64,000 nucleotides of DNA, taken from a virus. The stretch is taken from positions 32,001 through 96,000 of IMG/VR virus record IMGVR_UViG_3300009509_000004. One strand, 5' to 3'. The notes under the pieces are model-generated. The model did not search any database. It saw only the letters and a list, made by a program, of their open reading frames with translations, and was not told where the DNA came from. Positions 10,443 to 64,000 of this stretch are shown piece by piece (positions within the stretch are counted from its first letter, which is position 1; each line of letters opens with the position of its first letter). A program made the position numbers and the translations under genes.

Positions 10443-13400
10443 TATGCCACCCCCTTCATCGGAGCAGCGCCGTGCTCAAGCATCGCCCTGCGTTGCCACG
10501 GGGTGGACTTGAACCCTGACCTGTCCTGAATCTCCTGCTTGTGTCTTGCGCTCGCAACGTTGATCGACTCGCCGTCAACGCACATCTTGTTGTTGATGTC
10601 GATGGTGCGCTTGTCCTCAAGCTGAATCTCTGCTTTGACCTCTGGCTTTTGCGCCTGCCGTTGTTTCTCCATCGCCTTGAGATCGCCGATTGCCGCAACT
10701 TGATCCTTGAGCAGCGCGATCTGTTCAGCCGTCCCTGCCTGTGCTTGGGTCTGGGCTGCCTGAACCTGCGGTTGTGCTGCCGCCGCTGCCGCTTTTGCCG
10801 GCTCTGCGCCTTTTAGAGTTGCTGCAACAGTAGGTACAGCCTTGTCCAGTTGCGCAGCAATTTCGTCACTCTGAATGCCTCCCTCCATCCATTTCTGAAG
10901 GGAACCAAGATCAACTCCCAGCTTCCCTGCGAGCGTATCAGCACCAGGGATCTTGCGGATGAGTTTGATCACCACGCCCATGACTGCCCTCAGCGGCATG
11001 GTCAGCGCGTTGAAGATGCCGATGCCGACCCGTTTGAGGCCACCCAGGAAGTCGCCTTGGAACATCTGGATGATGCCGCCAAACACGTCCTGAAACACCC
11101 TCTTGATTGTGATGATGGGCGTCTTGAACAGCGGGATCAAGAATGACACGATCTTGCCGATTGTGTTGACCACAAAGCCAACGACCTCGATGAGAGCAAT
11201 CAACATTGCTGAAATGAAGTTGCCGATGGTCGTGCCGACCTCGACCCAATTGACCTCGACCGTGCTGCCACCAGACGTGAACTCTGCCACGACATCGTTG
11301 ATCTCTGCCTTGATTTCTGCCACCACCCCGCTGAACGTCTCAACGATGGTGTTCCAGACGTTCATGAAGGTGTTTTTGATCTCTGTCCAATTTGCCATCA
11401 GGGCATCGCCCGCCGCCTTCAGCGCGGTGAGTGGCCCCTCGATGAATCCCCATACTGTGTCCATCAACCAGACAAACACATCAATGACCATGCCAAAGGC
11501 ATCAGCAGCGACACTGGCAACCCAGAGAACGCCGTTGGCGATTGCTCCGCCAACTTCATCCCACTTGATCTCCATGTCGTCCAAGCCCTGGAACCATGAC
11601 CCAAAGATGGCGTTGAACCTCTCTTTGATTTTGGCAACTGTGGTCTCGATTTTCTGAACTGCTTGGTCCCAAACCGCCTTCCACTTGTCAATGACCGCCC
11701 CGATGCCTTCATCCCACTTCTGCTTGAACCCGTCAATGAACGGTGTCCAAACGTTGTTGTAGAAGTCCATCACGGCCTGCTTGATGTTGCCCCACACCCT
11801 GACCAGGGTGTCGCCAATTGACTCGCCTTCCTTCCTGATGAACAAGAATGCAAGGGCAACCGCCCCCGCAACGATGACGATGGGCCAGAACGCCCCTGCG
11901 AGCAACGCCAGCCCGCCCTTGATGACCGCAAACGCCCCAAGCGCGATGGTCTTGAATGCCGCAAACGCCTGAATCAACCCGCTGACCATGAAACCAAAGG
12001 TCACAAGGCCAAGAATGATGGGCACCATCGCGCCTGCCACAATCGCAAAGATGGTGGCATATTTGGCAATCTTGCGCACGCCGTCCTTGCCAAACTTGTC
12101 CTCAAGCGTCTTGCCCAGCTCCTTGACTTTGGCCACAACGCTGTCCCACGCATCCCTGAGCGTGTCGATGGCATCTTGCAGCCCCAGCGCGATCTGCAGG
12201 GCTGTGCTCCCGTGTTCCTCTTCAATCTTCTGCAGTGTCTCCATCTCAAAGATTTGAGAACGGATCTTGTCAGCATCCCTGGCTCTGGCCGCCTCGACCT
12301 CTGACATTGCAGCGATCTCTTGCTCAATCTGCCTGCGCTGCGCCTGGCTCAATTTCTTGTTGCTGTCCAGCGCCTCTTGCAATACCTGGGTGCGCAACTG
12401 CCTCTGAGCGTCAGCCGCCCCCGCCGCGCCGCTGAATGCAAGGTCAATCTGCTGCTTGGAAGCATCCCGCCTCGCCTTGACCATCTCGTTGATCTGCTGA
12501 AGCATCATGTTCTTGCGCTTCTCAGACAGATCGCTGATGGATTTGACTCCAGCCGCTTCCAAGTGCCGTGTCTTGAGCGCTTCTGCTCGCCTCTTGGTCT
12601 CAGCCTCGATGGCAGACTCAACCGCCCTCTTGCGCGCCTCGACCTGCGCTGATGACAACTGCTCTTCACCTATCTGCATGCGGGAAATCACCTGAAGTGC
12701 TCCCAGCATTGAACTCCTGTATTTGTCCGTGACGCCAGCCGCCTCAAGCCGCTTGCTCGACTCACGTGCAATGGCCTGAGCGCTCTTGGCGTTCTCCATG
12801 TTCTCCTTTTGTCTGATCTCGTTGAGCCCTTCCAGGCTGAACAGCACGCCGTTCAAGCTGTTGGTCATCTGCTCGATGACTGGCGTGAAGCTCTTGAGCA
12901 GCGGTCCAAAAATGCCGATGCTCACCGACTCGACTGATGCCCCAAACAGTGTTAGTCTGCCCAGGAAGTTGTCAAGCCGCTTGTTGGCCATCTCTGTGGC
13001 CGCCCCAACGCCAGCACTGGATGCGACAAGCTCATCTTGCAACTTGTCCATCGACTCCTTGCCAGCAACTGCCAGAGCGTTGTATGCACGCGCACCCCTG
13101 ATGCCAAACAGCTCAGTGGCGATGCGCGCCCGCTCCGTGGCGCTTGGGATCTTGGCCATCCTCCTGCTGACCTGGTCAACGATGTCGCTCACCTTCCTGA
13201 GCGTTCCATCTGCGTTGGTCAGTGACAGCCCCCAATCGTTGATGATCTTCTTGCCCTCTCGCCCTGGCTTGGATAGCTTCACCATCATGTTGGTGAATGC
13301 CGTTCCAGCCAGCGATCCCTTCAGGCCTGCATCCGCCAGCTTGCCAAAGATGGCAGTTGTTTCCTCAAGGGACATCCCAAGTGATTTGGCCTGGGACACG

Positions 13401-14068
13401 CCATATTTGAATGATTCTCCAAGCCCTGTGATATTGGTGTTTGACCTCGCTGAAGCAAGGGCCAGCACGTCTGCGACGTGTGAAGCCTCGCCCCATTCCA
13501 TGGCCATGCCCTTGACGACCTGGGCAACGATGTCGGATGCTGTCGCCAAGTCGATGGCGTCAGCCGCCGCTGCATTCATCGTGCCTTGGAGTGCTGCGAT
13601 GATCTGGTCTGAGTTTGCGCCCGCCCGCCCCAAATACTCCATCGCCTCGCCTGCCTGAGTAGCACTGAACACGGACACGATGCCCATGCGCTTTGCTTCC
13701 TTGGTCAGCTTGGCCATGTCCTCTTCATTGGCTCGCGTGATCGCGCCAACGCCAGACATCTGCTGCTCAAACTTGGCTGCCTTTGCTACGCCAGCCCCTA
13801 CTGCAGCTGTGAGTGGGAGTGCTCCCAGCGCTGCGTTGCGCAGCCCCGCTCCCATCTGTTTGACGCCAGCTCCAATCTGCTTGAAGCCAGACATCATCTG
13901 GTTTGTGGCTTGTTGTACCGATCTCGCCATGCGCTGCATGGCAGGTGGGGTGCGGTCAGCAGTCTGGATGAACTGTCCCAAGGCATTGCGCGCACGATTG
14001 CTTGCTTGGACAAATTGTTTGTCGTCTGCTGTGAGCGTAGCTCCCAAACCGTATCGCTCAAGTGCCAT
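10442..14068 (-). CDS. Tape measure protein (TP901-type core)
   Basis: 1208 aa and helical; FSATQAGEAMEYLGRAG and LADAGLKGSLAGT core motifs; hydrophobic segments and Trp-periodic repeats. Confidence 0.95.
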   Translation of the reverse strand: MALERYGLGATLTADDKQFVQASNRARNALGQFIQTADRTPPAMQRMARSVQQATNQMMSGFKQIGAGVKQMGAGLRNAALGALPLTAAVGAGVAKAAKFEQQMSGVGAITRANEEDMAKLTKEAKRMGIVSVFSATQAGEAMEYLGRAGANSDQIIAALQGTMNAAAADAIDLATASDIVAQVVKGMAMEWGEASHVADVLALASARSNTNITGLGESFKYGVSQAKSLGMSLEETTAIFGKLADAGLKGSLAGTAFTNMMVKLSKPGREGKKIINDWGLSLTNADGTLRKVSDIVDQVSRRMAKIPSATERARIATELFGIRGARAYNALAVAGKESMDKLQDELVASSAGVGAATEMANKRLDNFLGRLTLFGASVESVSIGIFGPLLKSFTPVIEQMTNSLNGVLFSLEGLNEIRQKENMENAKSAQAIARESSKRLEAAGVTDKYRSSMLGALQVISRMQIGEEQLSSAQVEARKRAVESAIEAETKRRAEALKTRHLEAAGVKSISDLSEKRKNMMLQQINEMVKARRDASKQQIDLAFSGAAGAADAQRQLRTQVLQEALDSNKKLSQAQRRQIEQEIAAMSEVEAARARDADKIRSQIFEMETLQKIEEEHGSTALQIALGLQDAIDTLRDAWDSVVAKVKELGKTLEDKFGKDGVRKIAKYATIFAIVAGAMVPIILGLVTFGFMVSGLIQAFAAFKTIALGAFAVIKGGLALLAGAFWPIVIVAGAVALAFLFIRKEGESIGDTLVRVWGNIKQAVMDFYNNVWTPFIDGFKQKWDEGIGAVIDKWKAVWDQAVQKIETTVAKIKERFNAIFGSWFQGLDDMEIKWDEVGGAIANGVLWVASVAADAFGMVIDVFVWLMDTVWGFIEGPLTALKAAGDALMANWTEIKNTFMNVWNTIVETFSGVVAEIKAEINDVVAEFTSGGSTVEVNWVEVGTTIGNFISAMLIALIEVVGFVVNTIGKIVSFLIPLFKTPIITIKRVFQDVFGGIIQMFQGDFLGGLKRVGIGIFNALTMPLRAVMGVVIKLIRKIPGADTLAGKLGVDLGSLQKWMEGGIQSDEIAAQLDKAVPTVAATLKGAEPAKAAAAAAQPQVQAAQTQAQAGTAEQIALLKDQVAAIGDLKAMEKQRQAQKPEVKAEIQLEDKRTIDINNKMCVDGESINVASARHKQEIQDRSGFKSTPWQRRAMLEHGAAPMKGVA

Positions 14069-22482: not shown

Positions 22483-22791
22483 CTATGGATACAAATCAGT
22501 TGGGTGAAATGGAGAACCAACAACAATGTCCTCCCCACCAGTCGTTGTGTCCTTCTCTTTGTAGTACGCCTGCAGGACATCGCCCGTCCTTGGCGCTCTT
22601 TTCAACTCAATTGTTGAGTCGCTGGTCTCTGTCCAGCCCCATTTGTCATCATCCGGTTCATACACCTGGCCATTCCAGATGAGCCTCAGCGTTGTCTCAA
22701 CGTACCTGGATGGCGTAGTGAACTGCTTGTTCACGCCATTCACGACGCCTGTCAACGCCAAGATGGATGATTCATGAAACTGACCAGCCAC
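22483..22791 (-). CDS. Small virion beta-sandwich protein
   Basis: LTGVVNGVNKQFTT...LIWNGQ...APRTGDVLQAYY. Confidence 0.55.
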   Translation of the reverse strand: MAGQFHESSILALTGVVNGVNKQFTTPSRYVETTLRLIWNGQVYEPDDDKWGWTETSDSTIELKRAPRTGDVLQAYYKEKDTTTGGEDIVVGSPFHPTDLYP

Positions 22792-33122: not shown

Positions 33123-33258
33123 ATCTCACCTCGTTTGCGCAATTCAACACAACAAGGTAAGAGTAGATTGGAAGCGCCAAAAAGGAAAGCATCACACAGG
33201 CATGAAACCCGTTATGCTTTCTTGATTTTGTGCAAATGATGTGGGAGAACGGCTGAAA

Positions 33259-33507
33259 CTATACTTCTTCAACCATGATTTTGCTGGAATTTGAAAATGC
33301 GATGGGCAGATTGTCCAAGAACTTTTGGCCGTCCTTGGGGGTGAAAAGACCTTTTGCTGTCACGATCCCGTTGCGCTCCAAGTCATCCTTGAACCACTCG
33401 GTGTCCTTCTGCCAGTCAGCGACCAACTTGCCCCCAGACATATTGAATGTGACTAGGTGCTTGTATTTGCCTGTATCTGGCTTGTATATGGTGACCTTGA
33501 GTGCCAT
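33259..33507 (-). CDS. Small protein downstream of the MuF-kinase; candidate immunity protein or regulator
   Basis: 82 aa, AGGAG RBS, 38 nt after the MuF-kinase stop. Confidence 0.6.
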   Translation of the reverse strand: MALKVTIYKPDTGKYKHLVTFNMSGGKLVADWQKDTEWFKDDLERNGIVTAKGLFTPKDGQKFLDNLPIAFSNSSKIMVEEV

Positions 33508-33545: not shown

Positions 33546-35648
33546 TCACCCGCCAGTCTTGGCCCCTGGCGTGGAACTGATGAATTGCCCTGCTGATGTG
33601 ATATTCTGCGGAGCAGCCCCTGCATCTTTGTATGCCTCTCCAACGATCTTGATGATTTTCTCTCTGTCTCCTGGCTTGACCAACGTCAACGGTTTGTTGG
33701 TGGCCCTGCTGAAAAACTCCATGACCTTGGATGTGGAGTTGTACTCAGGCATCTTGTCTATGATTTGTGGGTTGATTTGCAGCGCCCTGATTCTGATCAA
33801 CGTTTCCATCGTGGCCTGGCTGGGCACACCCGCTTCCCTGAGCACCTGGGCAACTCTCTCCAACTTCAACTTCCTGATTGCCAACACGCTCGCCCGATCC
33901 AATTTGACCAACGAGTCTGCCAACGTGGATGGCGCATCAGTTGGGAAAATGTACCTTGCAGGCATCCCCTTTGGGAATGTCAGCCCGTTGTCGATTGCGA
34001 TGGCGTTGTATGCCGTCTTGCCGCCCCTCTTCACGGCCTTGAACATGATATTCTGCGTGTGTCTGTCGTCATTGGCCCCGATGACGTCAAGCAAAAACAT
34101 CCTGCGGATGCGCGGATCGTTGTTCAGTTGGCCCGCATAGGCCATGCTCCTGACTGCAGACCCTACATCATCCATGTCCTTTGCCCCTGGAACATAGTGT
34201 TGCAGGCTGCCAATCTTACCAACGCCTGGATCACGAGACACAGTTGGTGGCACAACCATTGTGCCGCCCATCTCCCTGTCGATCTTGTACATGGCAGCTT
34301 CCCTGGCGTGGTATGTCCCAGGCTCGATGCCCCTGCGCAAGCTCATCTCGCTCTCAGCTGTCTTCCAGACAGCCTTCACTTTGGTTTGGTCTGGCGTCTG
34401 TAGGGTTGCCATCTGCGCCCCGTTGACGCCCTTCCCGATCTGCTTTGCGCTGATCATCCTGCTCGTCAGCAAGTTGCGGATGATTTTGTCTTCAGCACTC
34501 TCCTTTTTGACACCAGGCGGCATGATCTCCTTGGGCCTCACTGGCCTGGTGCTCGTTGGGAAGTCCATTGGTTGCAGATCTGAATATGACCCAACCTCAT
34601 CGGACACATCAACTGTACACCTGCACCTGAAGTGATATGGCGGCAAGGAGAATCCAGCAGCGGCAAGCGCCGCTTCATCCTTCCCCTCGACAGCCTTGGC
34701 ACTCCTGGGCCATGGGTGTATTGCCTTGATGTCCTCTGGGCTCTTGGCCATGAACTCCTGCTCAATCTGATTCAACCCCTGCTGCAAGCTGAACGTCTTG
34801 CCTTGCAGCGAGTCACAGACTGCGCAGATCCTTGTGCCACCTGGATTGGTGATGGTGTAGCGCGTGATGCCGACCTCGGCAAAACTCCGCATCTGCCCAT
34901 ACACCCGTCCAACCGTCATCGCATTGGCGACAAGCCCTTCAAAATACTGCTTCTCAGTGCCTATGAATCCTTTGGGCGTGACAACCTTCCCCAACATCGC
35001 CTTGACGCGGTCAGCCATCAGCTGGCCCGCAACGGCTGGACTTTGCCCCGCCTCGATCATCGCCTCGCGTGTTGTGTCGCTGATCGAGTTTGACAGGTTG
35101 GTGTCGTAATGTTCACCAATCCAAAATGTGTTCTTGTCCTTCAGCGCCTGGACAGCCTCTTCATCGACAAGATCAAACGATGGAAGCGCTTGAACCTTTG
35201 CCTTTTTGACAGTTGACGTTGTGCCCTCTGTCTTGGGCACGTTGAACTGGAGCGATGCCATAGACTGCTTGGTGGCCTTCTTGTAGCCTGCCAGCCTGGC
35301 CAGCCTGTACACAGCGACTATTTCTGTGTTGAATGTGGCTGTTACGTCCTTGGCCCACTTGTTCATGACGTTGGCGATTGCGGCTGCAATCTTGTCGGCA
35401 GGCTTCAAGTCCTTTGCCATCTTGACAGCGACCTTGACCGCCTCTGCTTTGCGTGCGTTCCACTTCCCTTCCAGGAAGCTCCGCAAGCGCAACTCAGCCC
35501 GCGCAATCTGCGCAACCTCGCTCAACTTGAGCACTTTCGCAATCGTCAAATCGGATGATGCGCTGTTGATGTATGCCTTGGTCACGCCAATGGATACATA
35601 CTTGCGCTCATGCAGCTTTATGACATTGCTGTGGCAATCATCGCACAT
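33546..35648 (-). CDS. MuF/SPP1 gp7-like minor head protein fused to a C-terminal PI3/PI4-kinase-like domain
   Basis: MuF motifs CAVC...GKTF and PPYHFRCRC. Kinase motifs GKGVNG, AVWK, REAAMYKID, VPPT, GSLQHYV, NDDRHTQN, AIDNGLTFP. Confidence 0.85.
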   Translation of the reverse strand: MCDDCHSNVIKLHERKYVSIGVTKAYINSASSDLTIAKVLKLSEVAQIARAELRLRSFLEGKWNARKAEAVKVAVKMAKDLKPADKIAAAIANVMNKWAKDVTATFNTEIVAVYRLARLAGYKKATKQSMASLQFNVPKTEGTTSTVKKAKVQALPSFDLVDEEAVQALKDKNTFWIGEHYDTNLSNSISDTTREAMIEAGQSPAVAGQLMADRVKAMLGKVVTPKGFIGTEKQYFEGLVANAMTVGRVYGQMRSFAEVGITRYTITNPGGTRICAVCDSLQGKTFSLQQGLNQIEQEFMAKSPEDIKAIHPWPRSAKAVEGKDEAALAAAGFSLPPYHFRCRCTVDVSDEVGSYSDLQPMDFPTSTRPVRPKEIMPPGVKKESAEDKIIRNLLTSRMISAKQIGKGVNGAQMATLQTPDQTKVKAVWKTAESEMSLRRGIEPGTYHAREAAMYKIDREMGGTMVVPPTVSRDPGVGKIGSLQHYVPGAKDMDDVGSAVRSMAYAGQLNNDPRIRRMFLLDVIGANDDRHTQNIMFKAVKRGGKTAYNAIAIDNGLTFPKGMPARYIFPTDAPSTLADSLVKLDRASVLAIRKLKLERVAQVLREAGVPSQATMETLIRIRALQINPQIIDKMPEYNSTSKVMEFFSRATNKPLTLVKPGDREKIIKIVGEAYKDAGAAPQNITSAGQFISSTPGAKTGG

Positions 35649-39692: not shown

Positions 39693-39836
39693 GTCGATCT
39701 CCTTGGAGGGGTGGACGGCACCAGGGTGCAGGAGATCAGACCAAGAAGAAAACCCAAGAAGCCTGAGCCCTATCTGGCGGTTGGCATGGCCATAGCACCC
39801 TGGTGCCTCACCCGTTTTTCAGGGTTGCTTGCGATC

Positions 39837-56440: not shown

Positions 56441-56503
56441 TCAAGTATAGTTGGCTTGCTTCCATAAGTCAAGAAAAAACGACCTCAGAGACAACTTTTT
56501 TTG
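56441..56503 (-). promoter_or_regulatory. Repeat promoter copy 1 (TTGACT-17-TATACT)
   Basis: Same upstream A7GTTG...GGTCGT6C box as the other copies. Confidence 0.85.
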
Positions 56504-56856
56504 TATGCCTGATACAGCGCAACGTTCAACGTTGCCGTCCTGGCCGGTTTCTGGACAAGCCTTGTGCCGTTTGTGTGTTGCGCAAGCGCATCGAGCCATC
56601 CCCCTGTGTAAATGACCACTGGAAGTGGGCACCTTTCAATCATCACCCTTCCCCCGCCCAACGGCACATCCCAATCACTAAGCACCACGTCATACTTCCC
56701 TGTTGCCGCCTCGACCAGCCCCTGTTGTACTGTGTAAACTGCCTTGACTTGCTTCCAGTGGTCCTTGAGTTGCCTCTCAATCGCCCTCGCCAATGTTTCA
56801 TCATCTTCAACCACAAGCAAACTGAGCCGCCTGATGGTGCCCTCCATTCCAATCAT
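56485..56856 (-). CDS. Single-domain CheY-like response regulator
   Basis: LLVVEDD, YDVVLSD (phosphoacceptor), PVVIYTG and QKP are all present. Confidence 0.85.
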   Translation of the reverse strand: MIGMEGTIRRLSLLVVEDDETLARAIERQLKDHWKQVKAVYTVQQGLVEAATGKYDVVLSDWDVPLGGGRVMIERCPLPVVIYTGGWLDALAQHTNGTRLVQKPARTATLNVALYQAYKKSCL

Positions 56857-56877
56857 TTTTTCTCCTTGGTGGAAGTG

Positions 56878-56901
56878 AAAAGGGCACCCAACGGGTGCCC
56901 C
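56878..56901 (-). terminator. Intrinsic terminator
   Basis: AGGGCACCC-3nt-GGGTGCCCT stem running into a T tract on the minus strand. Confidence 0.75.
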
Positions 56902-56925
56902 TCTCGCTCCTATGTTGTCGCCCTG

Positions 56926-57939
56926 TCAGGCGATGGCTTCCAAAATCATCTCAGCCTCATCCTCTGCCCTCGGATCCAACGACCAACGCTTGATTCCCCT
57001 GAAGCGCTTGACGTCAACGTCAATCGGATTCAGGAAGCGAACAAAGCTGCCGTTGATCTCGACACCTTCTGGGCTGATGATACCGTCTGTGACCAGCTGC
57101 TCAACGATCTCCTTGGCGCTCTTGCTCTCGCCCTCTTTGGTGTCTGTCACAACGTAAACACCGCCCGCGTGGCGCTTGCCGCACTTGCGCTTGGCCTCGA
57201 CCTTGACCAACCGCTCTTCAACCGTCCTGAAGCCTCGCTCTTTTTCCATCTGGTCCTTGACCACCTCGGTGTCCTCTGCCTTCAGAATATACTCAACCGC
57301 GTCAGGGAGAAACAAACCAAACACCTTGGCGTCTGGAAGTCTGCCCGTGCCGCCGCACGTTTCGCACATTTCCTTGTCCAAAACGTTGGCGATGTTGAAT
57401 TTTTGCGGCTGATGAAGCCAGTAGTTGTATTTGCGATAGTCCCAACGCTCTGACTTGAGCCCCTCGCCGTTTGCGACTGTAGCGTGGCCGCCTGTGCCGC
57501 CCTCGACATGATCTGACATGCCGCTGATCTCGCCTTGGAGTTTGAGCGCCTTCTGCGCCCTGCGCTCGATGAGCTTGTTGATGCGGTCGATGTCGGCCTG
57601 GCCGCCTTCTGCGTCGCAAACGCCCTTGTCGATGCTCTCTTGGACGCCCTTGGCGTTGTCTTCCAGATCCTGGATCTCCTTTTGGAGATTTTGGAGCGCT
57701 TGCTTGGCCTTGCGCTTTTCTGGATTTTCGATGGTGCCGAGACAATCCGCGCACTCGTGGAAGCTGCCCTCATCGTGCGCGACGAAAATGACGGTGCCCT
57801 CTTGCGTGAGCGCCTGCCCTACGTCTGCGTTGGGTAGCCTCTTGGAAATGCCCTGCGTGACCGCCTCGCCCGTCCAATCCTCGATGGACTTGTAGTGCTC
57901 TGACCCGACCCACATGAGATAGCTTTGCTTGATTTCCAT
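56926..57939 (-). CDS. Early protein with a split CxxCxGT Zn finger and a coiled-coil insert
   Basis: CADCLGT ... CETCGGTG flank a coiled coil; KCGKRHAGGVY; start moved to MEIKQ, after AGGAGAACGG. Confidence 0.75.
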   Translation of the reverse strand: MEIKQSYLMWVGSEHYKSIEDWTGEAVTQGISKRLPNADVGQALTQEGTVIFVAHDEGSFHECADCLGTIENPEKRKAKQALQNLQKEIQDLEDNAKGVQESIDKGVCDAEGGQADIDRINKLIERRAQKALKLQGEISGMSDHVEGGTGGHATVANGEGLKSERWDYRKYNYWLHQPQKFNIANVLDKEMCETCGGTGRLPDAKVFGLFLPDAVEYILKAEDTEVVKDQMEKERGFRTVEERLVKVEAKRKCGKRHAGGVYVVTDTKEGESKSAKEIVEQLVTDGIISPEGVEINGSFVRFLNPIDVDVKRFRGIKRWSLDPRAEDEAEMILEAIA

Positions 57940-57980
57940 GTCCGTTCTCCTTTGTTTGGTGTTTGCCCTCACCATCTAAT

Positions 57981-58055
57981 ACAATTATAGTTGGCTTGCT
58001 TCCAGAAGTCAAGAAAAAAACGACCTTGGAGGCAACTTTTTTTGTCTCCACGTCC
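57981..58055 (-). promoter_or_regulatory. Repeat terminator-promoter copy 2
   Basis: TTGACT-tctggaagcaagccaac-TATAAT. Confidence 0.9.
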
Positions 58056-58453
58056 TACAACTTGGTGTAGCCCTTTTTCTGCTTGGCCTTCACCAGATCG
58101 GCAAACACGTGTTCTGCCTTGCCTTGGGATGGATACTTGCCCTTGATCTGCCTCTGGAGAGAATGCGTGCGCCGCCCCCACTCGATTGTCACCTGGAAGT
58201 CGCCATCTGCAAGCCTGTCCAAGTGGACGTTGTACACCTTGTCCGATGTCCCTTGGCGATAGGCCAAGTTGGTCGTCACGATCCTGGCTGCCTCTGTCGC
58301 CCCGTGTGCGTTCTTTGTGTCCAGCGCGTCTGCTATGACGTCTGGTATGGCCTTGGCCTCTGCCGCTTCCCTCCGCACATCCTCGACACTTTTCAGCACG
58401 CCCTGCCCAAAAGTGCCCTCCCTCATCGCCTTTCTGATTTGTTCGAGATCCAT
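58055..58453 (-). CDS. WGR-domain protein
   Basis: GTSDKVYNVHL...VTIEWGRR...F..LVKAKQKKGY; the true start is MDLEQ inside the 404-aa ORF. Confidence 0.85.
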   Translation of the reverse strand: MDLEQIRKAMREGTFGQGVLKSVEDVRREAAEAKAIPDVIADALDTKNAHGATEAARIVTTNLAYRQGTSDKVYNVHLDRLADGDFQVTIEWGRRTHSLQRQIKGKYPSQGKAEHVFADLVKAKQKKGYTKL

Positions 58454-58463
58454 GATCCACCTC

Positions 58464-59297
58464 TCAATCGAAGCAACCCGTGTTTCGCCAGTACACCTTG
58501 AGGTCTGGGTCGAAATACACGGTGTTGTCCGGTGACTCGTATGTTTGCCCCTTCTTGGCCCCTTCCCGCTCAAACGCCACCACGTAGGAATTGACGATGA
58601 ACTCGCCGTTGCTGAATCGCAGCTGCGTCCAGCCCTTGTCGCAGAGCGCTTCCAGCGCGTTGTCGCTGATGGAGCACGGCAATTTGCGCTCTGGCTGCCT
58701 GACCTTGAGGATGTGATCGGGGTGGATCCAACGGACATCGCTTGGGCCTCTGAACCGTTTGCCCATCGCTGCCCCCATCGCCTTGAGCATCGCCAGATCC
58801 GACTCGATGCCCCTGAGATTGCGCTCGATGCCGACCTTGCCCGACTGGAAGTTGACTTTTGCCACCCGCTCCCACTTGCTGCCGTCCCTGTAATTGACCA
58901 ACACCTCGTCACCGATGCTGATTTTTGTGCCGCTGGGTGCGTTGCGCCAAAATTGTGACCCGTTGTAATCCAGATCGCCGATTGCCGCCCTGCCTCGCTC
59001 TGCCCGCGCCTGCTTCCGTTCTTGGACTTCCTGCTGCGTGCCTTCCATCTGTCCCAACGCCTCGTTGAGCTGCTCCTGGGTGTATGTGCCCTTGGGCAGC
59101 CCCAAAAGCGCCTCGCCCTTGACCGTCCAAGCGTAGGTTTTGCCTGTGCGCTCGATGGGCGCAAGCGTGTACTCTCGCTTGCCTGCGTATTTGCCCCGCC
59201 TGATGTACCTGGCGCTTTGGATGACGCAATCGATCCTTTTGCCTTTCGACATGATGCTGACCGCGTCACCTACCTTGAGTGCTTTGAGATCTGTCAT
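58464..59297 (-). CDS. Early protein with tandem SH3/KOW-like beta barrels
   Basis: LKVGDAVSI and ISIGDEVLVNY segments; AGGAGAACGG RBS. Confidence 0.65.
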   Translation of the reverse strand: MTDLKALKVGDAVSIMSKGKRIDCVIQSARYIRRGKYAGKREYTLAPIERTGKTYAWTVKGEALLGLPKGTYTQEQLNEALGQMEGTQQEVQERKQARAERGRAAIGDLDYNGSQFWRNAPSGTKISIGDEVLVNYRDGSKWERVAKVNFQSGKVGIERNLRGIESDLAMLKAMGAAMGKRFRGPSDVRWIHPDHILKVRQPERKLPCSISDNALEALCDKGWTQLRFSNGEFIVNSYVVAFEREGAKKGQTYESPDNTVYFDPDLKVYWRNTGCFD

Positions 59298-59351
59298 GCC
59301 CGTTCTCCTTGTTGGGTTGCCAACCCTCTTTGTTTTCTACTGAGCTGCCAC

Positions 59352-59639
59352 TTACAGCGCTGAAATTGCCGCCTCGATGTCTTCTGCCGATGCTCCGTTG
59401 AATTTCCCAAACTCCCTGACGCCTTTTTCGGTGATTTCTGCGAAGTAGTGCTTGACCTTGCGGGTGCGCTGCTCGCTGAAAACCTTGATGAGCCCTTCCT
59501 CGGTGAGCTGCTTGACCGCCTCGCCATATCCTGCCTGGAACCAATCTGGGCTGCGAAAGTTGGTGCCCAACTCGATGATGCCGCCGTTGGTGTTGAGGAT
59601 GTTGATGAGAATGTCTTTTTGCGCCTCGTTGAAATTCAT
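59352..59639 (-). CDS. Small winged-helix-like protein
   Basis: AVKQLTEEGLIKV...EITEKG. Confidence 0.65.
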   Translation of the reverse strand: MNFNEAQKDILINILNTNGGIIELGTNFRSPDWFQAGYGEAVKQLTEEGLIKVFSEQRTRKVKHYFAEITEKGVREFGKFNGASAEDIEAAISAL

Positions 59640-59650
59640 CGTGACCTCCT

Positions 59651-59731
59651 ATTCTTCAATTATAGTTGGCTTGCTTCCAGAAGTCAAGAAAAAAACGACC
59701 TTGGAGGCAACTTTTTTTGGCTCCATCGTTC
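59651..59731 (-). promoter_or_regulatory. Repeat terminator-promoter copy 3
   Basis: Core identical to copies 2 and 5. Confidence 0.9.
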
Positions 59732-59826
59732 TCCACCTCCTTGACGATGTGTGTTTTTTATACACACACCTGCCCGTGGCCGCCTGGCTGGGCAGCCGCC
59801 TGCGCGCCCCGCTGCCGCCGCCGTGC

Positions 59827-60003
59827 CTACTGGCGGTGTGGCGGCTTGACCCGCTTGACCTTGCCCGCCTTGGTGTTGCGGGAGTGGTTGGCCTTTGAGC
59901 GGGAAAAAAGGGTGCGGCAGAATCCGTCGTTGCGGTCGTTGTAGCTGCCGACCTCGATGAAAAGCGCCTTGCGGATGGAGATCTGATTTGCGTTGTTGGT
60001 CAT
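59827..60003 (-). CDS. 58-aa basic protein
   Basis: Translated by hand as MTNNANQISIRKALFIEVGSYNDRNDGFCRTLFSRSKANHSRNTKAGKVKRVKPPHRQ; directly behind the repeat promoter and leader. Confidence 0.65.
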   Translation of the reverse strand: MTNNANQISIRKALFIEVGSYNDRNDGFCRTLFSRSKANHSRNTKAGKVKRVKPPHRQ

Positions 60004-60020
60004 GTCCGTTCTCCTTTGCC

Positions 60021-60101
60021 CTATTCTTCAATTATAGTTGGCTTGCTTCCAGAAGTCAAGAAAAAAGTTGCCTTGGGGCCAATTTTTTTTGACCCCAAGG
60101 C
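60021..60101 (-). promoter_or_regulatory. Repeat terminator-promoter copy 4
   Basis: 13-bp stem (60070-60082/60089-60101), then a T tract, then TTGACT-17-TATAAT. Confidence 0.9.
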
Positions 60102-60113
60102 GTGACACCTCCC

Positions 60114-60341
60114 TCAATAGACGATCCAACCCCGCCCCATGTTGTCCCTGCGTCGTGGGATGTCCTCTGCCGGCACGTCCAACTTCCCTGCGTACACCCC
60201 GACCATCAGCGGATCGTCGCAGACGATCCCAACACAAGTGGAACCGTACATACAACGCCCCGAATATGTTGGGCGCACGCTCGCCTCGTATCCGTCTGAC
60301 TCCAACGCCTCCACGATTTTCTCTGCTTGCTCCAACGTCAT
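60114..60341 (-). CDS. Small conserved phage protein
   Basis: YSGRCMYGSTCVGI...DNMGRGWIVY pattern; AGGAGAACGG RBS. Confidence 0.7.
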   Translation of the reverse strand: MTLEQAEKIVEALESDGYEASVRPTYSGRCMYGSTCVGIVCDDPLMVGVYAGKLDVPAEDIPRRRDNMGRGWIVY

Positions 60342-60354
60342 GTCCGTTCTCCTT

Positions 60355-60660
60355 TCAATCCAAAGTGAAGCGCACGACCCAGCCTGAACCGTGCGCGGCG
60401 TGAGTGTATTGAACGGGTGCGCTCGCCTGCCGTAGCTGACCGCCGTGGAGGTGGTGGAAGTAGGGTTGCCGGATGAGCGCCCTCAAAACCACCTCCTGGA
60501 CCTTCCTGATGTCCTGGAAGTCTGCTGGCGAGTCTGCGAGCACGGTGACCTCTGCTCCGATGACCTGATATGGGTCGTGCTGGCGACCTCTCGCTGCCGC
60601 TTTGACCATTAGACTGGGCCTGAACCCAGCCTTGATCGGATTTTGGTGGATGACCTTCAT
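60355..60660 (-). CDS. Hypothetical protein
   Basis: 4-nt start/stop overlap with the upstream gene. Confidence 0.55.
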   Translation of the reverse strand: MKVIHQNPIKAGFRPSLMVKAAARGRQHDPYQVIGAEVTVLADSPADFQDIRKVQEVVLRALIRQPYFHHLHGGQLRQASAPVQYTHAAHGSGWVVRFTLD

Positions 60661-60842
60661 TCTCGCTTCCCCTCGACCTCGACTGAGAATTTCAACTCAA
60701 TGTCGTATCCGTTCTCAGGATTTTCGTGAACAAAATCGACCATTTCCTTGAGCGCTTCCATTGCCTCCTGCCAGGAAAGATCCCGATCTGTACACCGACC
60801 GTCCACCCAAAATTCCACTTTTTTCAGTAGTTTTGTCTTCAT
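60657..60842 (-). CDS. Small hypothetical protein
   Basis: MKTKLLKKVEFWVDG start after GGAGAACGG. Confidence 0.6.
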   Translation of the reverse strand: MKTKLLKKVEFWVDGRCTDRDLSWQEAMEALKEMVDFVHENPENGYDIELKFSVEVEGKRE

Positions 60843-60855
60843 TGCCCGTTCTCCC

Positions 60856-61335
60856 TTAGCTGCTTGCCAAGCCAAAAAATACAAAAACTTTGCCGTGTCG
60901 CCCCGCCATCCCGTAGCGCTTTTTGTACTCGACCGTTGCGCTGTAGCCCAACTCGATGGCGAGCGCTGGCCCCCACTTGTCGTTGTAGCGCCTGGCGTGA
61001 CTGAGCGCCCAGGTGCGATACTGCTTGGGAACCTGACGGATGAAATTGCGCTTGGCCTCTTTGTCGTCTGAATCCGACTCCTGGAAGAATGCCGCCGCCT
61101 CGATCCAACCGATGGCCTTGCCGACCTTGACCTGCTTGTTGGGAAGCTGGATGAGGGTGTAACCGTGCTTGGAAGCGATGTCGCCGCTGTAGCTGTAGAG
61201 ATCCTCATCGCAAGCGTCGTATCCGTCGCAAGCCATATCCGCCCGCCTCTCGCTGGCCGCCTGGTCTTGCGCGTTGCGGAAAGCCGCCCCGATGTCTTTG
61301 CCAAATGCCGTCGTTGAGAATTCACATGCGCCCAT
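60856..61335 (-). CDS. Conserved phage early protein
   Basis: MGACEF...YSGDIASK...DKWGPALAI...FVFFGLASS pattern. Confidence 0.7.
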   Translation of the reverse strand: MGACEFSTTAFGKDIGAAFRNAQDQAASERRADMACDGYDACDEDLYSYSGDIASKHGYTLIQLPNKQVKVGKAIGWIEAAAFFQESDSDDKEAKRNFIRQVPKQYRTWALSHARRYNDKWGPALAIELGYSATVEYKKRYGMAGRHGKVFVFFGLASS

Positions 61336-61356
61336 TTCCGTTCTCCTTTTGTTTGC

Positions 61357-61440
61357 CCTATTCTTCAATTATAGTTGGCTTGCTTCCAGAAGTCAAGAAA
61401 AAAACGACCTTGGAGGCAACTTTTTTTGTCTCCAAGGTCG
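61357..61440 (-). promoter_or_regulatory. Repeat terminator-promoter copy 5
   Basis: Perfect 11-bp stem (61405-61415/61430-61440), T7, then TTGACT-17-TATAAT. Confidence 0.9.
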
Positions 61441-61450
61441 CCATCTCCCC

Positions 61451-61786
61451 TCACTCTCCTTTCACAAACCAATCGACAGGGGCAAGCCCCAAGTATCCGT
61501 TCAGCCGCTCAAATACCTCGTTGGCGTCCAAGCAACCCTCGATCCGACTCCGCACCGCCTCCACGAAACACCGCGCCCCGATTGTCGAGACAACGCCGTT
61601 GAGAATCAGCCAACGGCCATCAGCGATCTCGATCTCCACCATCTTCCCATCTTCCTCAAATAGAATCTGGGCAGCTGTCTCGCCCTCGCCCACCTCCCAC
61701 GTATAGTGGGCACCCTCGCCATCGCCGTCCACGAAAAACCCAGCAACGATGGCTCTCTTGGTCTCTTTGATTTTCTTCTTCATCAT
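61451..61786 (-). CDS. Hypothetical protein
   Basis: AGGAGAACGG RBS before MMKKK. Confidence 0.6.
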   Translation of the reverse strand: MMKKKIKETKRAIVAGFFVDGDGEGAHYTWEVGEGETAAQILFEEDGKMVEIEIADGRWLILNGVVSTIGARCFVEAVRSRIEGCLDANEVFERLNGYLGLAPVDWFVKGE

Positions 61787-61822
61787 CCGTTCTCCTTTCA
61801 AGTTGGTATGCCGTCCAACCAT

Positions 61823-61897
61823 ACTTCAATTATAGTTGACACCCCCGACTATTTTTGGTCCATTTTGCAGGTTGGAGGCAATTTTTTTTGTCTCCAC
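61823..61897 (-). promoter_or_regulatory. Variant repeat promoter (TATAAT kept, -35 altered)
   Basis: caacTATAATtgaag and the upstream A-tract/TTGCCTCCAA box are retained; no TTGACT at 17 bp. Confidence 0.55.
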
Positions 61898-62131
61898 GTA
61901 CTTTTTTTGAGAGCCAATTTTTTTTTGCCTCCACGTTCTTTTTCTCTTGACTTCTGCTCCCCAATTTTCTCAATTTCCAAAGTCTATTGAATAGATTGCG
62001 GAGAACCCACGCCCGCTTGGCTCGTTTGCGTCGTGCCTCTCGCTCAAGCCCCGCTTGGATATGCTCCACCCATGCCGCTCGATGTGGGTTTTCTTGGCTC
62101 TGCCGATCTTGCAATTGCGGAAAGCCACGTC

Positions 62132-62191
62132 AAAAAAAGTTGGCTCTGAAGTCTCTTTTTTCTTGACTACAACTTCTTTTGGCGTTATACT
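62132..62191 (+). promoter_or_regulatory. Opposite-strand copy of the repeat promoter
   Basis: A7GTTGGCTCTGAAGTCTCT6C, TTGACT (62163-68), 17 bp, TATACT (62186-91). Confidence 0.8.
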
Positions 62192-62196
62192 ATACT

Positions 62197-62337
62197 TGCG
62201 GGGTGTATGCTGCATTCGCGTGCTACCGTTTGCCTGAACCTTCTAACGCGCCGCGTTAGAGCAAGGCAGATCTCCCCCTTCCTCCCCAGCGGTGCTGGTA
62301 GGTACCAGTACTGTCCTGGATGTGCTTCCACCTGCTC
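62197..62337 (+). ncRNA. Candidate small RNA
   Basis: Downstream of the plus-strand promoter; two hairpins flank a C-rich tract; no convincing ORF. Confidence 0.45.
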
Positions 62338-62550
62338 CTACGGCAGAACGTGGACCACGGTGAAGCCTCTCGACTGCGCCGTGGCCTTGGCCTGCTGGCG
62401 TGCCTCGGTGAAGGTGCCGGTGAAGCTGACCCAATTATCCATGTTGTCTGGATCGTCGCCCAGAGCGAACATCCACGCCCCAAAACCCTTGGGTTGCTTC
62501 ATGTGACTGCGGAAGAATGCTGCGGTTTCAACTGATACTCTCTTTGCCAT
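62338..62550 (-). CDS. Small conserved phage early protein
   Basis: SHMKQPKGFGAWMF...GTFTEARQQA...VHVLP; behind the repeat promoter. Confidence 0.7.
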   Translation of the reverse strand: MAKRVSVETAAFFRSHMKQPKGFGAWMFALGDDPDNMDNWVSFTGTFTEARQQAKATAQSRGFTVVHVLP

Positions 62551-62565
62551 GTCCGTTCTCCTTTG

Positions 62566-62642
62566 CCCTATTCTTCAATTATAGTTGGCTTGCTTCCAGA
62601 AGTCAAGAAAAAAACGACCTTGGAGCCAACTTTTTTTGACCC
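62566..62642 (-). promoter_or_regulatory. Repeat promoter copy 6
   Basis: TTGACT-17-TATAAT with the conserved leader. Confidence 0.9.
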
Positions 62643-62671
62643 ACCACTTCCACTGAGCAATGCCCTGAACA

Positions 62672-62705
62672 GAAAAGTAGGAGTGCCCCACAACGGGGCA
62701 CTCCT
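62672..62705 (-). terminator. Intrinsic terminator
   Basis: AGGAGTGCCCC-5nt-GGGGCACTCCT followed by ACTTTT on the minus strand. Confidence 0.8.
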
Positions 62706-62735
62706 TGGGCAAATGGAGAACGGATGACGATCTGG

Positions 62736-63344
62736 TCAGCGCTGATCTGTCTTCAAGATCCCAAAGCGCTGCGTGAGCTTGTATTCATCGATGAGCTGAT
62801 CTGCGATGTCCTTGTTGCCCAGCTCTTGGGCAAGCATCGTCAGCACCAACCCGATGATGTTGTGCGTGTAGTTGCCATTCTGTTGGAGTGCTCGCCTGAT
62901 GCGCGATCTCGCCTTGGTGACTGCTTCTGGCTCGTTGTCCGGCACCTTGTCGCAGATGCACTCGACCCTGCCGCAGATCTCACAAAGTGGGCGTGGGGCT
63001 GGCTTTTCCGATTTGCTGGGTGCCTTCTTGGCCTCCCTCGCTGCCTCCCCTGCCGCCTCTCGTGTTTTCGATTTGATCTTGACCTTCCCCTTGGGCTTGG
63101 TCTGCTTTTTGCCTCCTTGCTGTGTTTCTGCGTGCTGGCCCTCGCTGGGTGCCTCTGGTGCCGTGTAGCCTTTCTCTCTGATGTCGCCGTGAGCTTCGCA
63201 ATCTGGATTGCGACAGAATGCGTATGGGTCAGACTTCTTGACTGACCTGTACTTGCCTGCCGCCTGAAGCTCTGGGTCTGGCATGTGCTTGAAGAGAATC
63301 TTGCCGCACGCGGGACAAGGTGGCTGTTTTGGTCTGCCTGCCAT
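62736..63344 (-). CDS. Zn-finger-containing protein with a basic linker
   Basis: CPAC...CRNPDC and CEIC...CIC; AGGAGG RBS. Confidence 0.7.
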   Translation of the reverse strand: MAGRPKQPPCPACGKILFKHMPDPELQAAGKYRSVKKSDPYAFCRNPDCEAHGDIREKGYTAPEAPSEGQHAETQQGGKKQTKPKGKVKIKSKTREAAGEAAREAKKAPSKSEKPAPRPLCEICGRVECICDKVPDNEPEAVTKARSRIRRALQQNGNYTHNIIGLVLTMLAQELGNKDIADQLIDEYKLTQRFGILKTDQR

Positions 63345-63356
63345 GGTAGCCTCCTG

Positions 63357-63941
63357 TTATGCCCGCTCGATGACGGTTGCTAGGTTGAAAAGTGCCTCGC
63401 TGATTTCGCTGCGCCCCTTGACCTCTGCGACCTCTGCGAGACTGAGGGTGCGCTCGATGGCGCTGTCCCTGTCGTAACTGAACTGCTGCGTTTGCGCGAC
63501 TTGAAGCGCCTTGTCGGTGTACTCTTTGGCCGTCGTGAACTCGTGACCGTTGAGCGCCCGCTCGATGACCTGAAGCGCCTCTTGAACGATGTGGACGGTG
63601 ACCTTGCCGTAGCTGGTGCTGCGACGGTTGCCTGCGTAGGTGGTGCGCGTCCAAACCTGGTAGCCCTTTGCGCGCTTGATTTGCTGGGCCTGCTCCCAAA
63701 GCTCCTTTGCGATGGCCCAAGTGAAAGTGACCTCGGTGATCTCGACTGCCGACTTGACAAACGCCTTGCTTTCGCCGTGTCGGGTGCTGGCCCCGCCGTT
63801 GCGCGCTTCCTTGGCGCTGCTTACCTCGCCCCAACACCGCACGATGGCTTCTGGCTTGGCGCGAAAGTCGATGGCCTGAACGATGTACTTGCGACCCGTT
63901 GCTTTGACTTCTGCGATGCGTTCTTTTCTGATTGGCTTCAT
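63357..63941 (-). CDS. Hypothetical early protein
   Basis: Behind the repeat promoter and AGGAGAACGG RBS. Confidence 0.7.
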   Translation of the reverse strand: MKPIRKERIAEVKATGRKYIVQAIDFRAKPEAIVRCWGEVSSAKEARNGGASTRHGESKAFVKSAVEITEVTFTWAIAKELWEQAQQIKRAKGYQVWTRTTYAGNRRSTSYGKVTVHIVQEALQVIERALNGHEFTTAKEYTDKALQVAQTQQFSYDRDSAIERTLSLAEVAEVKGRSEISEALFNLATVIERA

Positions 63942-63956
63942 TCCCGTTCTCCTTTG

Positions 63957-64000
63957 CCCTATTCTTCAATTATAGTTGAAGCCAATCCAGAAGTCAAGAA
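63957..64000 (-). promoter_or_regulatory. Repeat promoter copy 7, cut by the window edge
   Basis: TTGACT-tctggattggcttcaac-TATAAT. Confidence 0.85.

Follow-up and report, generated by a model that had tools for sequence, protein, structure and literature searches.

The phage genome under study (IMG/VR record IMGVR_UViG_3300009509_000004) comprises 106,758 bp at 54% G+C and carries nearly all of its genes on the minus strand. We analysed a stretch of 64,000 nt, bases 32001-96000 of the record, hereafter called the window, to which all coordinates given without a label refer. The region of interest is an array of cassettes, each made up of a quasi-palindromic A-tract/T-tract box (itself resembling a terminator), a promoter of the form TTGACT-17-TATAAT, and a short leader. 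Seven such promoters occur at 56444-63997, and two further cassettes, at genome positions 16660 and 15350, stand ahead of cobS-like and cobT-like genes. The minus-strand leader GGGCAAAGGAGAACGGACATG is present in two exact copies and once more with 2 mismatches (Table 1). A single RBS, whose core GGAGAACGG is invariant and stands at SD distance from the start codon, is common to 12 genes, those internal to operons included, and the stereotyped initiation region as a whole consists of GGGCAAA plus GGAGAACGG. The cassette at 59659-59687 has the usual promoter and an RBS of another type (AGGAGGTCACGATG, near 59640), with neither GGGCAAA nor GGAGAACGG; its gene would escape a control aimed at the stereotyped core and would therefore provide a natural negative control.

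The transcription unit that concerns us consists of such a promoter, a stereotyped leader, a 194-aa gene and a 202-aa gene. The 202-aa protein exhibits zinc-ribbon motifs, a Lys-rich linker, conserved Cys pairs, and a conserved C-terminal helical domain; its predicted structure is a poor one (pLDDT 59.8), and its six homologues, at 46-80% identity, look soluble and display a protein-like pattern of conservation. Its gene, with a codon score of 0.33 and a GC content by codon position of 0.58/0.45/0.68, matches the long genes of the genome. The sequence-only reading had considered the unit a possible toxic cassette, for which we found no mark of toxicity: neither the 194-aa nor the 202-aa product belongs to a Pfam or PHROG family, and no small hydrophobic ORF lies within the unit. 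A search of the 3'-terminal part of the 202-aa gene for a sigma-70-like promoter found none.

Downstream of the 202-aa gene, plus-strand positions 62707-62726 read GGGCAAATGGAGAACGGATG, which repeats the early leader almost exactly in the opposite orientation, as the sequence-only reading had described. Relative to the leader it has an additional T and lacks a C; only 0.01 matches to the leader at up to 3 mismatches are expected from shuffled sequences. On the mRNA this element, the anti-leader, begins 10 nt past the TGA of the 202-aa ORF and ends 1 nt before a 12-bp terminator hairpin, so that its reported placement between stop codon and terminator is likewise borne out.

Table 1. Positions of the anti-leader, of its presumed partners and of the related sites (window coordinates unless labelled otherwise)
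Feature	Position	Strand	Remark
Anti-leader (site 1)	62707..62726	-	Complement of GGGCAAA + GGAGAACGG(A); mRNA reads CAUCCGUUCUCCAUUUGCCC
Intrinsic terminator hairpin	62679..62705	-	12 bp, 8 G-C pairs; directly 3' of the anti-leader
U-rich terminator tail	62670..62678	-	ACUUUUCUG
202-aa gene	62736..63344	-	Second gene of the unit; anti-leader in its 3' UTR
194-aa gene	63357..63941	-	First in the unit, with translation from the stereotyped leader
Leader/RBS of the unit	63939..63959	-	GGGCAAAGGAGAACGGGAAUG; 2 mismatches to GGGCAAAGGAGAACGGACATG; predicted cis partner
Promoter of the 194-aa/202-aa unit	63969..63997	-	Sigma-70 type, TTGACT-17-TATAAT
Leader of the next cassette	62548..62568	-	Exact GGGCAAAGGAGAACGGACATG; about 140 nt downstream; thermodynamically the best partner of the anti-leader; pairs with it when a read-through RNA is modelled
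Promoter of the next cassette	62578..62606	-	
Second exact leader copy	60001..60021	-	Exact GGGCAAAGGAGAACGGACATG; possible trans target
Promoter-like site	62163..62191	+	TTGACT-17-TATACT; the sole plus-strand site with the -35 hexamer and spacing of the repeat promoter
Site 2	33244..33252	-	Second exact CCGUUCUCC; unpaired; AUUUGC 6 nt further on
Terminator hairpin and U-tract of site 2	33177..33221	-	Hairpin plus CUUUUUGG
Site 3	genome 11156-11167 = L016:2157-2168		Reads UGUCCGUUCUCC

Complements of the RBS core in three 3' UTRs

The 9-mer CCGUUCUCC is the complement of the core that is invariant in all 12 stereotyped RBSs. On gene-sense RNA this 9-mer is found in exactly 3 copies over the 106,758 nt of the genome, for an expectation of 0.03-0.18 under Markov models of order 0-3, the corresponding probability of three or more copies being 1e-4 to 7e-6. 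Each of the three falls in a non-coding 3' UTR next to a terminator hairpin, and with about 12% of the genome being non-coding the chance of three such placements in three is 0.002. A crude gene caller had scored site 3 as coding, having extended the next ORF to an upstream TTG; we read this site as intergenic because the Pfam matches of that next gene start at residues 4-6 of the protein initiated at the downstream ATG. Just two one-mismatch variants of the 9-mer were found, both inside coding sequence. The three elements have in common precisely the 9-nt core that is common to the 12 RBSs, and their recurrence is non-random.

Sites 2 and 3 stand 29 kb and 83 kb away from site 1. Site 2 starts 7 nt past the stop codon of an 82-aa gene (33259-33507) in the structural region, downstream of a 700-aa head-like protein, and matches only 9-10 nt. 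That 700-aa protein, encoded at 33546-35648 on the minus strand, has PHROG matches to head proteins (minor head protein, head morphogenesis) along with a PI3/PI4-kinase-like Pfam match at residues 516-605. Site 3 is contained within a 12-bp terminator-like stem that leaves UUCUCC exposed, and closes an operon made up of the cobT-like gene, one with a match to sigma-70 region 2, and one of 286 aa; the leader of this same operon contains an exact 12-nt complement of site 3. The genome thus holds two cassette-led operons carrying the RBS in the 5' leader and its complement at the 3' end, and the three elements are hosted by those two operons and by one late structural operon.

The sigma-like gene (L016:3097-4239, minus strand; genome 12096-13238) encodes a 380-aa protein whose match to sigma-70 region 2 makes it a candidate phage sigma factor, and shares its cassette-led operon with the gene of the cobT-like VWA protein; a cobS-like AAA ATPase gene (L016:6361-7551) occupies the preceding cassette. 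In a separate count, UUCUCC was present 9 times on the gene-sense strand of the 106.8 kb, versus about 26 expected from length alone, with three of the nine in non-coding RNA; strings resembling an anti-SD seem to be avoided inside genes.

Predicted pairing and a neighbouring protein of predicted Sm/Hfq-like fold

In the local fold site 1 is unpaired, directly 5' of the terminator hairpin. When we folded the complete 1293-nt transcript (63964 to 62672), leader nucleotides 6-21 were predicted to pair with the anti-leader at probabilities of 0.97-1.0 and nucleotide 22 at 0.59, though long-range folds of 1.3-kb RNAs such as this are equilibrium predictions that ignore ribosomes and kinetics. The predicted duplex consists of 7 bp, a bulged U, and 9 bp plus a G-U pair (leader nucleotides 6-22; 17 pairs, each at a probability of about 0.6-1.0), which agrees with the pairing of some 16-17 nt with one bulge that the sequence-only reading had anticipated. 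The mean probability that the RBS core is unpaired was 0.01 in this unit, versus 0.50-0.72 in four sibling units without such an element, and shuffling of the anti-leader raised it to 0.12-0.38 at a cost of 9-17 kcal/mol. Counting against a role as anti-RBS are the CAU of the anti-leader, which is out of line with the AUG of its own leader, and the departure of that leader from the consensus at two positions.

With respect to the sibling leaders, the net cofold gain of the 3' fragment, after subtraction of the unfolding cost, was -27.7 kcal/mol with its own leader and -32 kcal/mol with the leaders at 62548 and 60001, whereas the other stereotyped RBSs gave -18 to -27 kcal/mol and two control RBSs of the other type -10 and -14 kcal/mol. 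The proposed pairing with the leaders of the sibling cassettes is accordingly upheld by cofolding, the range over the twelve stereotyped leaders tested being -18 to -32 kcal/mol. In a modelled read-through RNA the anti-leader pairs with the leader of the next cassette. For duplexes of the leader with all gene-sense RNA, the two best partners were site 1 (-31.1 kcal/mol) and site 3 (-29.2 kcal/mol), the genome background having a mean of -8.0 kcal/mol with a standard deviation of 3.0. Site 3, being buried in stable structure, had a net gain of -1 to -11.5 kcal/mol, hardly above the controls. A whole-genome RNAduplex scan was too noisy to name any target of the elements at sites 2 and 3. Two further candidate anti-leader sites were rejected, namely window positions 22499-22528, which are coding sequence, and 39719-39748, which are a local anti-SD for the gene that follows.

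Just upstream of the unit, 35 nt past the right end of the window, lies a 78-aa gene (L017:136-372, minus strand; genome 96035-96271). Its product gives a confident model (pLDDT 87), and each of the 50 best structural matches is to an Hfq or Lsm protein, with Z values of 7.4-8.0 and an rmsd of about 2.2 A over about 60 residues; such Z values are near the level at which no more than a common arrangement may be shared. By sequence the protein could be assigned to the Hfq/LSM group neither through Pfam or PHROG nor through a PDB sequence match. A protein with a predicted Sm/Hfq-like fold fits RNA-based control without proving it, and would add a candidate chaperone to the locus.

Relatives and alternative explanations

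Searches for close relatives with the exact promoter in IMG/VR were negative, as were searches with the 202-aa protein in IMG/VR and among GenBank phages, and comparison of the DNA of the region with GenBank phages in both near and distant modes. A 16-mer of the RBS yielded single chance matches only in IMG/VR, with contig L026 proving unrelated, and a 19-mer of the box yielded chance matches only in genome contigs, that in L135 falling in a coding region. The search with alignment A1 found one relative, at 28%, in IMG/VR and 14 loci in JGI metagenomes at 28-43% over the full length (higher only over short segments), and no match in genome contigs.

We compared the relatives at the DNA level, their marker proteins being only 28-55% identical. 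A 105-kb contig (L001) encodes a homologue of the 202-aa protein at 43% identity and has the same box-promoter design with its own stereotyped RBS (GGGAGTCAGCC); over 12.5 kb it contains no complement of that RBS, and a box directly follows the 202-aa homologue. In another contig (L131), a Sm-like protein is 55% identical to the 78-aa protein of the phage, and its gene abuts that of the 202-aa homologue with no cassette between them; no 3' UTR follows the homologue, and the element is absent. Since the two genes directly abut in L131, the Sm-like gene and the 202-aa gene form a conserved pair, which in our phage is split by a cassette and the 194-aa gene. Judging from these sequences the cassette array together with the element is probably lineage-specific; and the element itself, because it is absent after the homologous gene in the distant relatives (L001 and L131 in detail), would be either lineage-specific or recent. 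In several relatives a GGGCAAA/GGACAAG motif occurs just upstream of the SD or near promoters (L001:6915-6945; L002, about 2760-2815; L011, about 190-240). The retention of a GGGCAAA-like motif where the SD regions of the relatives differ suggests a separately conserved leader element. The L131 contig also bears, at 13270-13542, tandem repeats of a unit of roughly 36 nt (GAGGTCGATACCGAGGTCGATACAGAGGGCAACGCC) that run to the contig end inside an ORF with a signal-peptide-like start.

The absence of the element from the relatives is also what would be expected if the anti-leader were a neutral by-product, i.e., an inverted partial copy of the leader that arose by template switching or gene conversion between the repeats and survived in non-coding DNA with no role. 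Many copies of the leader lie within 8 kb, site 1 contains two indels, and a promoter-like site in the opposite orientation, with the -35 hexamer and the spacing of the repeat promoter, is only 500 bp away, so that inverted material does exist here; a relic, moreover, would be tolerated only in non-coding DNA, which consideration weakens the statistic that all the copies are non-coding. Against this account stand three separate sites, each with the 9-nt core intact and with flanks unrelated to the cassette, all three located either 5' of a terminator hairpin or within one, sites 1 and 2 being unpaired and the UUCUCC of site 3 exposed. No remnant of a promoter or box is present at any of the three, and local alignment to inverted cassettes gave 17/18 positions at site 1, 13/13 at site 3, and 9/9 at site 2, with nothing beyond. 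Decayed whole inverted cassettes are therefore unlikely, since the likeness stops at the RBS complement, and we regard the neutral copy in general as the less probable account, to be taken seriously all the same at something like one chance in four.

Much less probable, in our estimation, is a site acting at the level of DNA, at which GGAGAACGG would be bound as double-stranded DNA in either orientation by a phage or host protein, for example a repressor just downstream of the early promoters, the reverse copies then being three additional sites where operons end. The motif does occur 15 times in the genome, far over expectation, and the GGGCAAA-like motif that is kept beside the SD in the leaders of distant relatives with a differing SD region hints at the binding of a factor. 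Each of the 12 forward copies, however, is at SD distance from a start codon, so that translation explains them, while the three reverse copies share a context that is specific to one RNA strand, exposed past a stop codon and beside a terminator; nor has a binding protein been identified.

Least probable of all, and only barely credible, is that the anti-leader merely supplies the RBS and the ATG of a genuine gene on the plus strand, which would begin at 62724 as a 173-aa ORF (62724-63245) and be expressed from the promoter at 62163-62191. Its 173 codons are open, GGAGAACGGATG is a valid RBS variant used by the gene at 61787, and the upstream plus-strand promoter is followed by no terminator-like site listed by the scan as far as 62724. 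The ORF, however, runs antisense to the 202-aa gene in the same codon register, and its codon score of 0.05 and GC content by position of 0.68/0.44/0.58 resemble those of the other plus-strand ORFs of at least 150 codons, whose scores are mostly near zero, in contrast to the figures and the six homologues of the overlapping minus-strand ORF; it belongs to no Pfam family, nearly all genes are on the other strand, and at sites 2 and 3 the plus-strand motif is followed by no start codon. The sequence-only reading had itself named such a gene as what would overturn it, and that objection falls away, the codon usage of the ORF being of the shadow type.

The promoter-like site at 62163-62191, one of three that the scan listed on the plus strand, is part of the neighbouring cassette. 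The DNA that it faces (plus strand, 62163-62337) is free of ORFs and contains a C-rich tract (UCUCCCCCUUCCUCCCC). An RNA started there would have to be more than 500 nt long to reach site 1; one of at least 350 nt would be fully antisense to the leader at 62548.

Proposed mechanism and comparison with known systems

We consider it probable, at roughly 0.55, that the anti-leader is a functional RNA anti-RBS, serving as a translational off-switch. From its sequence, position, accessibility, predicted pairing and recurrence we infer that pairing would take place in cells, that it would repress translation, and which mode would be the dominant one. The single-stranded stretch of the 3' UTR that lies against the terminator hairpin would base-pair with the initiation region GGGCAAA plus GGAGAACGG of the 12 genes. 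Acting in cis, the element would fold back on its own 5' leader once the 3' end had been made and the ribosomes had left the nearby stop codon, and would hide the SD of the 194-aa gene, whose translation would then be confined to a co-transcriptional burst; the 202-aa gene, having a different SD, would be unaffected. In trans, the whole mRNA or a 3' fragment protected by the terminator would pair with the leaders of the sibling cassettes.

Among these modes, we tentatively favour the fold-back in cis, which, though it may well not be the one that operates, would be the most economical because of its 1:1 stoichiometry and because two operons hold both partners. Action in trans we consider slightly less plausible still: it is the only mode open to site 2, and its drawback is that one element would face about 12 targets whose promoters are of comparable strength. 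The silencing of the next leader through read-through is thermodynamically possible in the modelled RNA and would have no obvious purpose, for which mode we hold out little expectation.

More speculatively, the 12 genes marked by the core, the three anti-RBS elements in 3' UTRs, and the Sm/Hfq-like protein might together constitute an RNA regulon that is shut off post-transcriptionally as infection proceeds, a proposal that we would back only at considerable odds against. An element of the 3' UTR able to close the mRNA that carries it, or to silence all the genes with one RBS, would be a compact timing device made of RNA only, and the regulon would be a clear natural case of one defined by RBS identity. 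Literature searches turned up no described equivalent of the phage element. Against Rfam, neither the window nor L016 nor L017 had a match at the gathering score, and in 62100-62800 even a threshold of E <= 1 brought up no relevant family. If the proposal is true, scanning 3' UTRs for complements of a phage's repeated RBS could reveal similar switches in uncultured phages.

The established fold-back mRNAs are the closest in architecture. In hok the fbi element pairs with tac, and hok/sok and aapA1/IsoA1 share with the predicted fold of the phage unit a 3'-terminal element that pairs with the initiation region at the 5' end of its own mRNA, the full-length RNA being predicted closed. The phage unit differs in having no small hydrophobic toxin ORF (less than about 60 aa), its products being the 194-aa and 202-aa proteins instead, and no overlapping mok-like frame; no Sok-like antisense gene is found, nor any plus-strand promoter-like site opposite 63939-63959. 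Furthermore, in the phage the SD itself would be paired, and the element also matches about a dozen other leaders.

In phages P1 and P7 the c4 antisense RNA, processed to about 77 nt, shares a transcription unit with its target, upstream of which it lies without overlapping it, and acts on one operon in the immunity control of a temperate phage. The anti-leader resembles c4 in complementing an RBS of its own transcription unit from a non-overlapping locus. It differs in being located in a 3' UTR, in having three copies, in being directed at a family of 12 RBSs, and in giving no match to the Rfam C4 family. A review (PMC12197685, citing Citron and Schuster, 1990) describes the antisense RNA of c4 as binding complements around the RBS and blocking translation, with the complementary stretches thought to lie in loops of the RNA; the complement at site 3 has a comparable loop-type exposure.

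With the 3' UTR-derived, Hfq-dependent sRNAs of enterobacteria (CpxQ, DapZ, SroC, and MicL) the anti-leader has in common that the intrinsic terminator of the parent mRNA is immediately preceded by an unpaired seed and, in the phage, a protein with a predicted Sm/Hfq-like fold encoded next door; in contrast to them, no internal promoter was found near the end of the 202-aa gene, the U-tails are short, and the putative targets are early leaders of the phage itself, among them the one on the parent mRNA. Lambda sib, in the retroregulation of int, forms an RNase III hairpin from which antiterminated transcripts decay at the 3' side; the phage element would likewise control from the 3' side a gene that lies upstream of it, but sib does so without pairing with an RBS.

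The shut-off of early genes in lytic phages is known mainly through proteins, namely nucleases, translational repressors, and changes to the RNA polymerase. In T4, RegB is a nuclease that cuts GGAG and RegA a translational repressor, both of them proteins. As in that system, the early genes of our phage have a recognisable SD region through which they could be jointly shut off by one factor; unlike in T4, the candidate factor is an RNA complementary to GGAGAACGG, and the proposed regulon, if true, would be an RNA counterpart of RegA and RegB.
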